Sequence record: HM173637
DNA length: 36,661 bases
Reading direction: 5' to 3' (one strand)
Origin: Escherichia phage HK75
The notes under the pieces are model-generated. The model had not been told where the DNA came from, made no database searches, and saw only the letters and a list, made by a program, of their open reading frames with translations. Positions within the stretch are counted from its first letter, which is position 1; every line of letters begins with the position of its first letter. The position numbers were made by a program, and so were the translations under genes. Positions 4,028 to 36,661 of this stretch are shown here, in pieces.

Positions 4028-5185
4028 ATGTCTGAACTCGCTCTCATTCAAAAAGCTATCGAAGAATCCCAGCAGAAAATGACCCAGCTTTTCAATGCGC
4101 AGAAAGCAGAAATCGAAAGCACAGGCCAGGTTTCCAAACAGTTGCAGTCCGACCTGATGAAAGTACAGGAAGAGCTGACCAAATCCGGCACTCGCCTCTT
4201 CGATCTGGAACAGAAACTGGCATCCGGCGCTGAGAATCCTGGTGAGAAGAAATCCTTCTCTGAACGGGCTGCTGAAGAGCTTATTAAGTCATGGGACGGT
4301 AAACAGGGCACCTTTGGCGCTAAAACGTTTAACAAGTCACTAGGCAGTGACGCTGATTCGGCTGGCTCACTGATCCAGCCTATGCAGATCCCAGGCATCA
4401 TCATGCCAGGCCTGCGCCGTCTTACCATTCGTGATCTGCTGGCTCAGGGCCGCACTTCCAGTAACGCTCTGGAATATGTGCGTGAAGAGGTGTTTACCAA
4501 TAACGCCGACGTGGTGGCAGAGAAAGCACTGAAGCCAGAATCGGATATCACCTTCAGCAAACAAACCGCGAACGTGAAGACCATCGCGCACTGGGTGCAG
4601 GCATCACGTCAGGTGATGGATGATGCGCCAATGCTTCAGTCCTACATTAACAACCGCCTCATGTACGGCCTGGCACTGAAGGAAGAGGGCCAGCTGCTGA
4701 ACGGCGACGGTACCGGGGATAACCTGGAAGGGCTGAACAAAGTGGCAACCGCCTATGACACCTCGCTGAATGCCACCGGCGACACCCGCGCTGACATTAT
4801 CGCTCACGCTATTTATCAGGTGACCGAGTCTGAGTTCAGCGCTTCCGGTATCGTCCTGAACCCGCGCGACTGGCACAACATCGCGTTGCTGAAAGACAAT
4901 GAAGGCCGCTATATCTTCGGTGGTCCTCAGGCATTCACCAGTAACATCATGTGGGGCTTGCCAGTGGTTCCGACTAAGGCGCAGGCCGCCGGCACCTTTA
5001 CCGTAGGCGGTTTCGATATGGCCTCACAGGTCTGGGATCGCATGGATGCCACCGTGGAAGTTAGCCGTGAAGACCGCGATAACTTCGTGAAAAACATGCT
5101 GACCATCCTGTGCGAAGAGCGTCTGGCGCTGGCGCATTATCGCCCGACAGCAATCATCAAGGGCACCTTCTCTTCTGGCTCATGA
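4028..5185 (+). CDS. Major capsid protein (HK97 fold)
   Basis: 385-aa ORF directly after the protease; N-terminal coiled-coil delta-domain-like region followed by capsid body; hairpin attenuator immediately downstream. Confidence 0.85.
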   Translation: MSELALIQKAIEESQQKMTQLFNAQKAEIESTGQVSKQLQSDLMKVQEELTKSGTRLFDLEQKLASGAENPGEKKSFSERAAEELIKSWDGKQGTFGAKTFNKSLGSDADSAGSLIQPMQIPGIIMPGLRRLTIRDLLAQGRTSSNALEYVREEVFTNNADVVAEKALKPESDITFSKQTANVKTIAHWVQASRQVMDDAPMLQSYINNRLMYGLALKEEGQLLNGDGTGDNLEGLNKVATAYDTSLNATGDTRADIIAHAIYQVTESEFSASGIVLNPRDWHNIALLKDNEGRYIFGGPQAFTSNIMWGLPVVPTKAQAAGTFTVGGFDMASQVWDRMDATVEVSREDRDNFVKNMLTILCEERLALAHYRPTAIIKGTFSSGS

Positions 5186-19327: not shown

Positions 19328-19346
19328 CTCATGATTTTCAATGCAA

Positions 19347-19372
19347 ACCTCGCCTCGGCGGGGTTTTTTATT
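19347..19372 (+). terminator. Terminator-like hairpin after the lipoprotein gene
   Basis: GC-rich imperfect stem (CCTCGCC...GGCGGGG) followed by TTTTTTATT. Confidence 0.35.
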
Positions 19373-19385
19373 GCCTGGAGAAAAT

Positions 19386-20687
19386 ATGCTTTATAACACT
19401 GGAACCATCGCCATTAACGGAAACAGCGCCACCGGCACGGGCACGAACTGGACGGCACCCGCCAGCCAGGTTCGCGCTGGCCAGACGATTATCGTGATGT
19501 CTAACCCGGTGCAGCTGTTTCAGATTTCATCCGTGAACAGCGCCACGTCAATGACGGTTACTCCAGCTGCTTCCCCTGCGCTGAGCGGCCAGAAGTACGG
19601 CATTCTGGTATCAGACAATATCTCGGTCGACGGACTGGCACAGGCGATGTCTCAGCTCATCAAAGAGTATGACGAGAATATTGGCGCATGGGAGACGTTC
19701 GCTACTACCTCAGCAAACCAGAGCATCACGGTAACTATAAACGGCACCCCCGTGACTATCCCCGGCATCGGTAAGCTGGCACAGAAAGGAACCAACGGTG
19801 CTCTCCCGATTGACCAGGGCGGGACTGGTGCAACTAACGCTGCAGACGTTCGCACAAACCTCAGTTTGGGAAGTAGCGCTTTATTGGATGCTCAAAGTTC
19901 CTGGAGTGATTCCGGTCAAAAGAAAGTTCTAACTGTGGGGGCTTTTGGTCTGGGGCGTGAAATTACTGAATCAGTTCCACTTAATACTATGAGCGAGTAC
20001 TACCCCTCATCGTTTATATGGTCGGTAGAGGACGCCAGCTACATGGGTGTCTCAGGAAGTCAGAACATTACCTCTATCGTAATAGCTCGCGGAGGAAGAC
20101 CAACTCGCATTCATCAAATATACACGTTAGGGAGGACTTTCTTCAGTTACCGAACACCTACAGGGTGGCTGTATCAGGAAGCCTACACAACGGGGAACAC
20201 CACTAAGGCGAGCGATGGCACGCTAAAAGCGGCTTCACCAGTTGCCCGCATAGTAACGAGTCGCGATGCATGCCAGCGCGCTGACGTAGCAGAAGATGGT
20301 TTCTCCTGGTGCGGCTGCGGGACAGCAAACGCAGAGGCGGAGGGCATAACCCTTTCTCGCCTTGAGGCGGGTGTTTACCAGCTGACAGGTTCAGCAGGCC
20401 TGGCATCGGAGGGATGGCAACTACTGCCCCCAATGGACCCTGGCGGCATGGGAGAACTGGGCGTGGTTGAGGCAGAGAAAACCGATAACGGCGAACTGAC
20501 AATCCGTCTGTTTAAGCGCAAATACATGCTGGGCGATGAAGGTGAGATTGTAAAAACAAAAGGGGAGCCTATCGACGTACCGGCTAACAGCTGGATTGAT
20601 GTTCGGCTGGACATGCCTGAAAACAGCGTCTGGAATCAGCGCCAGAAAGAGGCGATGGCAAAAGAGACTCAGGAACCTGCTTCGTAA
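19386..20687 (+). CDS. Tail fibre protein
   Basis: 434 aa from the ATG at 19386 (GGAG RBS at 19377-19380); Gly/Thr/Ser-rich, N-terminus typical of fibre anchoring domains; last structural gene before attP. Confidence 0.55.
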   Translation: MLYNTGTIAINGNSATGTGTNWTAPASQVRAGQTIIVMSNPVQLFQISSVNSATSMTVTPAASPALSGQKYGILVSDNISVDGLAQAMSQLIKEYDENIGAWETFATTSANQSITVTINGTPVTIPGIGKLAQKGTNGALPIDQGGTGATNAADVRTNLSLGSSALLDAQSSWSDSGQKKVLTVGAFGLGREITESVPLNTMSEYYPSSFIWSVEDASYMGVSGSQNITSIVIARGGRPTRIHQIYTLGRTFFSYRTPTGWLYQEAYTTGNTTKASDGTLKAASPVARIVTSRDACQRADVAEDGFSWCGCGTANAEAEGITLSRLEAGVYQLTGSAGLASEGWQLLPPMDPGGMGELGVVEAEKTDNGELTIRLFKRKYMLGDEGEIVKTKGEPIDVPANSWIDVRLDMPENSVWNQRQKEAMAKETQEPAS

Positions 20688-20895
20688 AGTAAACCGCCGC
20701 CCATCGTATGCAAGAACGTGCTGCAGCTGGCTGGCGAACTTTCGATAGTGCGAGTATTGAATGATTTCCAGCCGTTACCGATTTTACTATGTTTTCAGTA
20801 GAACATTTAGACAAAACTGAGACACACAAGGCTTTGCACTGGATTGCAAGACTTTGTGCTCTTCTGTGGATGTGTGTCTACATGTTTGAAGATTG

Positions 20896-20911
20896 TTGTG
20901 CCGTATTTGTG
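20896..20911 (+). repeat. Integrase arm-type site candidate (P arm)
   Basis: TTGTGCCGTATTTGTG, identical 16-mer repeated at 21113-21128 on the other side of the att core. Confidence 0.5.
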
Positions 20912-21019
20912 ACATACACATGGCAACATCATGCATCAACTTTCTGTTTGTGCCATCAACTATAGATTAGTGAATGCGGTTAATGCTTGCTAAACAGATA
21001 GTTATGATTGGTGCTACAG

Positions 21020-21065
21020 ATTCGTAATGCGAAGGTCGTAGGTTCGACTCCTATTATCGGCACCA
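21020..21065 (+). other. attP core: 3' 46 nt of a tRNA-Thr(CGU) gene (anticodon loop to CCA end), thrW-like
   Basis: ATTCGTAATGCGAAGGTCGTAGGTTCGACTCCTATTATCGGCACCA: anticodon loop with CGT, T-arm GTAGG-TTCGACT-CCTAT, acceptor 3' strand plus ACCA; no matching 5' half upstream. Confidence 0.75.
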
Positions 21066-21079
21066 TTTAAATCAATAAG

Positions 21080-22240
21080 TTACCTAGCATTTAAGTAAAC
21101 TACGTTCTCCTCTTGTGCCGTATTTGTGCCATTGCGACTTATAATCGCATCGATTTTGCTCGCGTGCTCGGTGAGATGCCCGGCTGAAAGGTGGGCGTAT
21201 CTTTGAACCATTTCGAGAGTTTCCCATCCTCCCATCTCTTTAAGTGCAAGAAGAGAGACACCGGACTGAACCAGCCAGCTTGCCCAAGTATGCCTCAGGT
21301 CATGGAAGCGGAAGTTGCTAATGCCTGCCCGCTTTAACGCTCCCTTCCATGCCTTGTTGCTGTCGGTTCTCATCTTCCTTACCGATGCTGTTTTTGTTCC
21401 GTCGCTTCGGTAGGCAGGTTTGGTGTGGACAAACACCCATCTCTTATGGAGACCCTGCTGTTTTCTTAATATCTGGCATGCGGTTTCGTTAAGAGGAACT
21501 CCGATCGCATTGCCAGCTTTTGTTTCATCAGGGTGCATCCATGCCATTTTCTTATCCAGATCGACCTGTGACCACTCAAGGTCTGTAACGTTGGAACGGC
21601 GAAGGCCTGTCGTGATTGCAAACATGACCACAGGGAAGAAATGAGGAGCAATTTCTGCAAACAGGCGCTTCGATTCCTCCTCTGTAAGCCATCTGATCCG
21701 TCCATTCTTAACGCGTGGTGTTGATATTTTTGGCGCCCTGTCAAGCCATCCCCATTCAACAGCCATATTGAGAATAGCGCGAAGTATTGCCAGATGCCGC
21801 GTCTTCGTTCCTTTGCTTGCCAGCTTTGGTTTATACTCCGGCACTGGCTTGCCAAGCCGCAAACACCTGTCCCGGCTCATTTCCCAGTTCAGGCGATGGC
21901 GGCGGTTTTCCATCCCGTCTACCGCCTCCATTATTTTTTCTGATGTTATGTCTGAGAGAATGGTTTCTCTGAAGTGCAACATCCAGAACGATATAATGCT
22001 CTTGTCATCATCAATGGACTTCTTATCCGATTTCTCTCGCAGCCACCGTATGCAGGCTTCCTTGAATAGCTTTTTCGGTGATTCCCCGAGATTTTTTACT
22101 CTCCACGCTTCTGCTTTCAGACGATCGTGAAGTTCTTGCGCTTGCCTTTTGTCCGATGTTTCAAGAGAGCGTCTAACTCTTGATCCATCTGGCGCGACGA
22201 AATCACAGTGCCACGTGCCACCGCGTAGTTTGATTGACAT
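21080..22240 (-). CDS. int: Tyrosine integrase (P22-like, tRNA-Thr-specific)
   Basis: 386 aa; C-terminal FHDLRHTWASWLVQ...RYAHL with catalytic R-H-R-Y signature; recalled strong resemblance to P22 Int; adjacent to the tRNA-derived att core. Confidence 0.9.
   Translation of the reverse strand: MSIKLRGGTWHCDFVAPDGSRVRRSLETSDKRQAQELHDRLKAEAWRVKNLGESPKKLFKEACIRWLREKSDKKSIDDDKSIISFWMLHFRETILSDITSEKIMEAVDGMENRRHRLNWEMSRDRCLRLGKPVPEYKPKLASKGTKTRHLAILRAILNMAVEWGWLDRAPKISTPRVKNGRIRWLTEEESKRLFAEIAPHFFPVVMFAITTGLRRSNVTDLEWSQVDLDKKMAWMHPDETKAGNAIGVPLNETACQILRKQQGLHKRWVFVHTKPAYRSDGTKTASVRKMRTDSNKAWKGALKRAGISNFRFHDLRHTWASWLVQSGVSLLALKEMGGWETLEMVQRYAHLSAGHLTEHASKIDAIISRNGTNTAQEENVVYLNAR
21113..21128 (+). 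repeat. Integrase arm-type site candidate (P' arm)
   Basis: TTGTGCCGTATTTGTG, direct repeat of 20896-20911. Confidence 0.5.
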
Positions 22241-22464
22241 GCTTTAACCTCCTGCACATCAACCGCATTCACCGCGCTATTGTGTCTTACAGACTTAAGC
22301 GCCGCAATGCAGTCTGACTTGCAAATGCGATATGGGCTTTTAGGTTTATCTGGATTTATCTTTGCGGCCTGAAGTCGTCCACTTCGTATCCACTGCGTGA
22401 TAGTGCCTTTGTCTACCTTCAGATACGATGCTGCCTCTTCACGAGTGAAGATTTCTTCTTCCAC
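22117..22464 (-). CDS. xis: Excisionase / HTH DNA-binding protein
   Basis: 115 aa, N-terminal excisionase-type HTH (EEAASYLKVDKGTITQWIRSGRL), 3' end overlaps int. Confidence 0.55.
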   Translation of the reverse strand: MEEEIFTREEAASYLKVDKGTITQWIRSGRLQAAKINPDKPKSPYRICKSDCIAALKSVRHNSAVNAVDVQEVKACQSNYAVARGTVISSRQMDQELDALLKHRTKGKRKNFTIV

Positions 22465-27353: not shown

Positions 27354-27575
27354 ATGAACGAAGTTACGTTTGCAGACGTTATCAAATCCGTTCGAGTTTC
27401 TGTTGTGGCTGAGGTTTGTGGCCTGACTCCAAAAGCCGTTTACAAGTGGCTGGAGAAAGGGGGATTGCCGCGTACAGAATTCACTGATGAAACTGACTAC
27501 GCGAAAAAAATCTCTCGTGCATCTGGCGGCAAATTCTCAACCGCACTGATTAAGCGAGTCGGAAAAGCAGCATAA
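27354..27575 (+). CDS. cro: Cro-like repressor
   Basis: 73 aa, divergent from cI, AGGAG RBS, HTH segment AEVCGLTPKAVYKWL. Confidence 0.7.
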   Translation: MNEVTFADVIKSVRVSVVAEVCGLTPKAVYKWLEKGGLPRTEFTDETDYAKKISRASGGKFSTALIKRVGKAA

Positions 27576-36522: not shown

Positions 36523-36606
36523 CGCGGCGGCGGCAAGTCGATTATCTATCATGTGAAATCATTTCAAATGCAACGATATCAAATGAGAATGAATCGCATT
36601 CAGGGC

Positions 36607-36619
36607 GGGGGGGGGGGGG
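36607..36619. repeat. Homopolymeric G13 tract in the putative cos region
   Basis: 13 consecutive G between the last ORF and the window end; flanked by GCGGCGGCGG (36523-36535) and its inverted copy CCGCCGCC (36651-36658). Confidence 0.6.
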
Positions 36620-36661
36620 ATCAAATCTTCAAAATCTTTGCCCCAAATGACCGCCGCCAAA

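Follow-up and report, generated by a model that had tools for sequence, protein, structure and literature searches.

The stretch of DNA analysed here, the 36,661-nt sequence of Escherichia phage HK75 (record HM173637; hereafter the window), carries beside its integrase gene what is almost certainly the attP of a lambda-style integration module, built around a heterobivalent tyrosine integrase, in the genome of a complete HK97-like temperate phage. The feature is an ordinary thrW attP of an HK97-like E. coli phage, already annotated and not new, and none of the results speaks against its assignment as attP. What is found at the site corresponds to a thrW-targeting lambdoid attP of the P22/SfX type: the core consists of thrW sequence including the CCA, int and xis genes of the P22/SfX clade adjoin it, arm motifs stand at the positions typical of the family, and the two arms are split in lysogens. 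The features discussed below are the following, with offsets given relative to the core.

1 to 36661, plus strand: complete HK97-like phage genome in cos-to-cos (virion) order, as judged from collinearity with relatives and from the HK97 ends
20824 to 20859, minus strand: conserved hairpin on the int-sense strand, then CUCAGUUUUGU, about 40 nt beyond the distal arm sites
20896 to 20915, plus strand: distal pair of putative Int arm-type sites on the P arm, TTGTGCCGTA + TTTGTGACAT, with TGTGCC and TGTGAC at -122 and -111
20947 to 20956, plus strand: proximal putative arm-type site on the P arm, TTTGTGCCAT, with its motif at -70
21020 to 21065, plus strand: att common core, 46 nt, the 3' part of thrW, tRNA-Thr(CGU)
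21027 to 21049, plus strand: probable crossover segment, the counterpart of the 23-bp 'attP core' in the P22 annotation
21070 to 21082, plus strand: predicted IHF-consensus match, AATCAATAAGTTA, 4 nt past the CCA and overlapping the int stop codon
21080 to 22240, minus strand: int, SfX-type tyrosine integrase of 386 aa (Pfam PF00589 Phage_integrase, E 1.5e-34)
21113 to 21132, plus strand: putative arm-type pair on the P' arm, TTGTGCCGTA + TTTGTGCCAT, at +95 and +106, inside the int 3' end
22117 to 22464, minus strand: xis, excisionase (recombination directionality factor) of 115 aa (Pfam HTH_17, E 1.4e-8), overlapping the int start

The core at 21020-21065 reads ATTCGTAATGCGAAGGTCGTAGGTTCGACTCCTATTATCGGCACCA, and when aligned with thrW of E. 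coli K-12 (262871-262946, tRNA-Thr(CGU)) it matches the final 46 nt of that gene at 46 of 46 positions. It begins with the final base of the 5' anticodon-stem strand and ends with the CCA, taking in the anticodon loop (CGT), the 3' side of the anticodon stem, the variable loop, the T arm and the 3' acceptor strand, while the 5' half of the tRNA is missing: in the alignment, the likeness to thrW stops directly upstream of the 46-mer. The original prediction had described this stretch as a tRNA-Thr sequence from the anticodon loop to the CCA without its 5' half, and the alignment, a comparison with a host tRNA-Thr gene of the kind that it had proposed as a check, bears this out. The length of attP-attB identity was gauged against two occupied sites, those of K-12 CP4-6 and of the prophage of E. 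coli HS. The 46 bases are also known from other phages, the att core having been found experimentally in SfI and said to be identical in SfII, SfV, SfX and P22 (PMC3636060); the core of the window agrees with this published 46-base sequence letter for letter (PMC3636060). The P22 record (NC_002371.2) contains the same 46-mer and annotates a 23-bp 'attP core' at 21300-21322, and by equivalence with that annotation the crossover likely takes place within 21027-21049 of the window, in a segment that would hold the core-type Int sites and the overlap region.

The decisive evidence that the site is an attP comes from a lysogen. In E. coli HS, proB and proA are followed by a complete 76-nt tRNA-Thr gene, an integrase gene, xis and then a P22-like prophage whose int shares 99.1% DNA identity with that of the window. 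The HS attL consists of the 5' half of the host thrW, the 46-nt core and the right arm of the window (97/100), after which int begins; the attR, 41.8 kb away, has a near-identical left arm of the window (with one indel), then the core and then DNA of unrelated sequence. The two arms flanking the core in the window therefore part exactly at the core boundaries in the lysogen, which identifies the site as attP, and the complete thrW held by the HS attL accords with the earlier proposal that this attP restores the tRNA gene on integration. At least 80% of the core-to-int segment is present in 143 E. coli genomes, and among the best 25 of these 143 most are annotated with a tRNA-Thr gene beside the integrase.

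Other occupied or unusual sites came to light alongside this comparison. In E. coli QL57EC, the attR (at about 4362-4450 of the segment examined) has a fossil SfX-type P' arm, CCTGTGCCGTATTTGT(A/G)CCATTG, past the core and without an integrase, and in the phi458 record (at about 1647-1720 of the segment examined) an SfV-type P arm is joined to a fossil SfX-type P' arm; such a fossil arm suggests either that thrW was occupied serially or that the record derives from a prophage and takes in some host flank. Uninterrupted SfX-type attPs also occur in E. coli assemblies, both inside chromosome records (NZ_CM142769.1, 3985334-3985785, where the intact site lies between tailspike and acyltransferase genes and int, and NZ_CM143887.1) and on separate replicon records (NZ_LT599830.1, 41.3 kb, and NZ_CP141750.1, 47.9 kb). 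These could be tandem lysogens, assembled excised circles or phage genomes reported as plasmids.

The neighbouring integrase had been called P22-like. Its position next to the core stands, and the label holds at the family level only, since the window Int shares 54% identity with P22 Int over 380 aa and is of the SfX type; the homologous int genes of HK446 and mEpX2 are annotated as 'integrase, similar to SfX'. The xis homologue is likewise annotated as an excisionase in the records of HK446 and mEpX2.

On either side of the core, the window bears the identical 16-mers that had been noticed from the sequence: TTGTGCCGTATTTGTG has exactly two copies in the window, 20896-20911 and 21113-21128, each on the plus strand. 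Dinucleotide shuffles yield a mean of 0.3 matches to this 16-mer even when up to 3 mismatches are allowed, so two exact copies are not due to chance. The repeat lengthens to 20 nt with one mismatch, and the heptamer TTGTGCC has 4 of its 10 occurrences in the window inside the 235-bp att region, all of them on the plus strand. Each 16-mer is made up of two adjoining decamers, TTGTGCCGTA and TTTGTG(A/C)CAT, so that it presents the short motifs TGTGCC or TGTGAC in tandem, 11 bp apart, and a fifth copy is found at 20949-20954; each 16-mer is thus two adjoining putative sites rather than one. The right-hand copy is not intergenic: it lies within the int coding sequence, where it encodes NGTNTAQ, and the C-terminal tail of Int that overlaps the P' pair is not conserved between lineages, P22 having SVPNMSH at this place.

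Six thrW-targeting phages were compared by anchoring them on the common core and reading the offsets of the motifs. Five motif copies stand at nearly identical offsets in these six phage lineages, with motif letters that vary by integrase lineage and with one orientation shared by all five in each lineage, except for the proximal P-arm copies of GF-2:

Window lineage: motif TGTG(C/A)C; P arm at -122, -111 and -70; P' arm at +95 and +106
P22, ES18, SfV and ENT47670: motif TG(G/A)GAC; P arm at -124, -113 and -59; P' arm at +95 and +106
Edwardsiella phage GF-2: motif TGTGTCG; P arm at -132 and -121, plus inverted copies nearer the core; P' arm at +96 and +107

The proximal P-arm site of the P22 group is a single TGGGAC at -59. 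GF-2 (1500-1600 of the segment examined) combines the identical 46-bp thrW core with a third arm motif, TGTGTCG, and with inverted proximal copies on the P arm. In the first 65 residues of Int, the counterpart of the arm-binding domain of lambda Int, identity is 92-98% inside the P22 group and only 55-66% when the three groups are compared with one another. The arm-type sites of P22 number five, besides the sites H and H'. A footprinting study of P22 is reportedly that of Smith-Mungo et al. (1994). Because their positions are fixed and their sequence is lineage-specific, the motifs show the pattern of integrase arm-type sites, and the 16-mers and the fifth motif behave as such sites would be expected to, judging from their positional equivalence to P22.

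A different assignment of the repeats is conceivable, in which the site is still attP and the 16-mers are binding sites for Xis or a host factor, or else a duplication scar, rather than Int arm-type sites. The assignment of SfX-type arm sites to Int is itself a prediction from sequence, the conservation of the right-hand 16-mer may partly reflect the protein that it encodes, and the P arm has further direct repeats (CATCAAC.. at 20934-20972). However, the motifs occur on both arms in the same orientation and with the 11-bp spacing, whereas Xis sites, as in lambda, are normally confined to one arm; the offsets stay nearly the same in six lineages while the motif letters follow the integrase; and the P' pair falls in the non-conserved tail of Int, where protein constraint is weak. 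This assignment is thus considered unlikely, and Int arm-type sites remain the preferred reading of the 16-mers. The further direct repeat of the P arm, CATCAACTTTCTGTTTGTG / CATCAACTATAGATTAGTG with a 20-bp spacing at 20934-20972, lies between the distal arm sites and the core and overlaps the third arm motif; it could contain candidate Xis-binding sites.

As for the form of the genome, the window is collinear over its left 24 kb with HK633, HK446, HK106, mEpX1 and HK97, and over its right 16 kb with mEpX2, HK542 and HK022, in both cases at 95-98% identity and with the usual mosaic gaps, these relatives being HK97-like lambdoid siphoviruses (Hendrixvirinae). The initial 160 nt of the window are 100% identical to the left end of HK97, and its final base is the final base of the HK97 record; because both ends coincide with the ends of that record, the window is a complete cos-to-cos genome. 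No single record in the phage collection compared covers the whole window. The left-hand neighbours of the site are the central tail fibre gene, cor and a side tail fibre gene (19341-20687; Pfam Phage_tail_C_2), and its right-hand neighbours, on the minus strand, are int and then xis. The claim that the element is in phage rather than prophage order is therefore upheld, with tail fibre genes on the left, int and xis on the right and the HK97 cos ends as termini. A complete tRNA gene or flanking host DNA, either of which would have spoken against it, was looked for and not found, no host DNA adjoining the core on either side.

It might be supposed that the window is instead an integrated prophage, whose tRNA fragment marks attL or attR and borders on host DNA at one side, since exactly the same tRNA fragments lie at prophage ends in E. 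coli chromosomes, as in the attR of HS and QL57EC. Here, though, the core has phage DNA on both sides, the P arm and tail fibre gene to its left and the P' arm with int and xis to its right, whereas in a real lysogen (HS) the two arms are 41.8 kb apart; the ends of the window, moreover, coincide with the cos ends of HK97. A prophage junction is ruled out by the phage flanks and the cos termini, and an integrated prophage is given hardly any credence; the window is read as a phage genome in virion order. A prophage or a circular contig could have been re-linearised by computer to give this sequence, in which case it would not be sequenced virion DNA. At the right-hand end, close to cos, a G-rich run at about 36605-36625 reads GGGCGGGGGGGGGGGGG where HK97 has AGGGCAGGGGGGGGGG, with 4 additional nt in the alignment as well as substitutions; a homopolymer of this kind readily varies in length or is misread in sequencing.

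The absence of a full tRNA at this place had been anticipated, and the searches agree: ARAGORN finds 0 tRNA genes in the whole window, and at the att site the Rfam tRNA model, run with permissive thresholds, reaches 15.7 bits, below its gathering score of 29. A functional or complete tRNA gene at the core was thus rejected, no complete cloverleaf being found above the thresholds of either program (ARAGORN 0; Rfam 15.7 bits). The 26 nt directly 5' of the core (20994-21019) bear a faint likeness to the 5' half of thrW (GATA..TTGGT..CAG), a resemblance that could be due to chance or be a decayed remnant, and the sub-threshold alignment of the Rfam model (15.7 bits) extends over its full length, at 20994-21062. 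The reading of the 46-mer as a phage-borne tRNA gene in decay, with repeats unrelated to recombination, which this full-length alignment and the faint 5'-half likeness might suggest, can be practically dismissed, as the score lies under the Rfam threshold, ARAGORN finds nothing, and the boundary of perfect identity is exactly that of the attL/attR junctions in lysogens and of the published att core.

Close to the core, the IHF consensus WATCAANNNNTTR has only two matches in the whole window, one of them at 21070-21082, and an AATCAA....TTA pattern is found at the same place in P22, SfV, ES18, ENT47670 and the attL of K-12 CP4-6. A second IHF site was sought on the P arm, where there is no exact match to the consensus, and a scan for terminators and promoters inside attP returned nothing convincing.

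How the proteins bind, where exactly the strands cross over and what IHF and Xis do is inferred from these sequence features, and the working of an attP of this kind may be pictured as follows. The N-terminal domain of Int would bind the five arm-type sites, at 20897, 20908 and 20949 on the P arm and at 21114 and 21125 on the P' arm, and its C-terminal domains would bind core-type sites inside the 46-bp stretch held in common with thrW, while IHF, at 21070-21082 just right of the core, would help to bend the P' arm. Strand exchange in the core would then join the 5' half of the host thrW to the 3' half supplied by the phage, giving an attL with an intact tRNA gene beside int, and an attR that would keep the tRNA 3' fragment at the tail-fibre end of the prophage; Xis, encoded at 22117-22464, would direct excision.

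When set beside known systems, the site is matched most closely by a group of phages that have the same int and xis, with the site between the tail fibre genes and int. Over 20840-21140, HK446 and mEpX2 are 100% identical to the window and HK542, mEp213, mEp043 and ECP1 are 95-96% identical, and the SfX int-attP fragment (U82084), which belongs to the same group, is about 96% identical over a slightly longer stretch; the HK446/mEpX2/SfX set differs from the window only in the neighbouring tail-fibre allele and other mosaic modules. An attP is annotated in HK446, HK542, mEp213 and mEp043, the HK446 record labelling it 'attP; prophage integration site; similar to thrW tRNA gene and ptwF', and the mEpX2 record notes for the site only a likeness to the tRNA genes thrW and ptwF on either side of CP4-6. 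P22, and with it ES18, SfV, SfI, SfII and ENT47670, has the identical 46-bp core. The P22 group also has the same layout, with five arm motifs, an IHF consensus just right of the CCA, and an int gene whose end reaches into the P' arm and whose start overlaps xis. In contrast to the window, its motif is TG(G/A)GAC instead of TGTG(C/A)C and its proximal P site lies at -59 instead of -70, and P22-type arms cannot be aligned to the window by BLAST beyond the core and about 20 bp, with Int at 54% identity.

Two further systems are more distant. The Int/Xis/IHF recombination mechanism of lambda is well established, and lambda, which works in the same manner, shares with the window a heterobivalent tyrosine integrase, a common core with arm-type sites to either side, an IHF site and an attP between the end of the late genes and int, a layout annotated in NC_001416; it differs in that its core is 15 bp long and lies between gal and bio rather than in a tRNA gene, and in its arm motif, the number and arrangement of its sites and its integrase lineage. 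CP4-6 of K-12 (thrW, ptwF) occupies the same chromosomal site, with thrW followed by related P'-like sequence including the AATCAA....TTA IHF match, but it is a degenerate island and not a phage, and its sequence is unrelated beyond about 25 nt past the CCA.

A conserved element also lies outside the arms. Left of the P arm, a 200-bp non-coding block (about 20691-20892) is 89-92% identical in HK106 and in the Stx2 phage 1717, in both of which it lies a few hundred bp from att, HK106 having a lambda-type int and attP. The block is 81% identical to lambda 27473-27536 over 70 nt, and 81-87% identical over 47 nt to the interval between the distal and proximal arm sites of P22, SfV, ENT47670 and phi458. 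The only conserved structure in 20690-20900 is the local hairpin, in which 4 of the 13 predicted pairs show compensatory changes among nine sequences; as a whole, this segment is no more stably folded than shuffled controls, whichever strand is taken (z = -1.0 and -0.25). A first reading of the block as a relic of a P22-type P arm was given up, and the block was then tested as lambda sib/tI, which was rejected in its turn: the homologous lambda 27473-27536 lies, as we take it, just beyond the classical tI hairpin (TTAGCGCAAG...CTTGCGCTAATTTTTT) and not on it, and for this reason the block is not called sib. Tentatively, the hairpin, with the U-run that follows it on the int-sense strand, may be a terminator or retroregulator for transcripts that leave int via attP, and the block at 20806-20890, common to lambda, HK106 and Stx phages, whose integrases are unrelated, and to the distal P arm of the P22/SfV type, may represent a common element of this sort. 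If this is true, such an element would be linked to int only in phage order, as lambda sib is, and would control int only when attP is intact.

For the biology of these phages, the site adds nothing new, since identical phage sequences are annotated and the core has been published for SfX, SfV, SfI and P22. Its value lies in annotation: from it the phage can be assigned thrW as its integration target and an SfX-like integrase, the sequence can be recognised as a complete virion-order genome rather than a prophage, and annotators should call neither a tRNA gene nor a pseudogene at this position. Beyond this, the thrW family may be a natural series with a core held constant by the tRNA gene and an arm specificity that has switched, at nearly fixed positions, together with the N-terminal domain of Int, the arm motifs of the series being TGGGAC, TGTGCC and TGTGTCG. 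Taken jointly, this series and a common hairpin terminator or retroregulator controlling int make up a speculative proposal with a smaller chance of being right than wrong. If the switching of arm specificity is true, elements could share thrW, or stack at it, without cross-excision.
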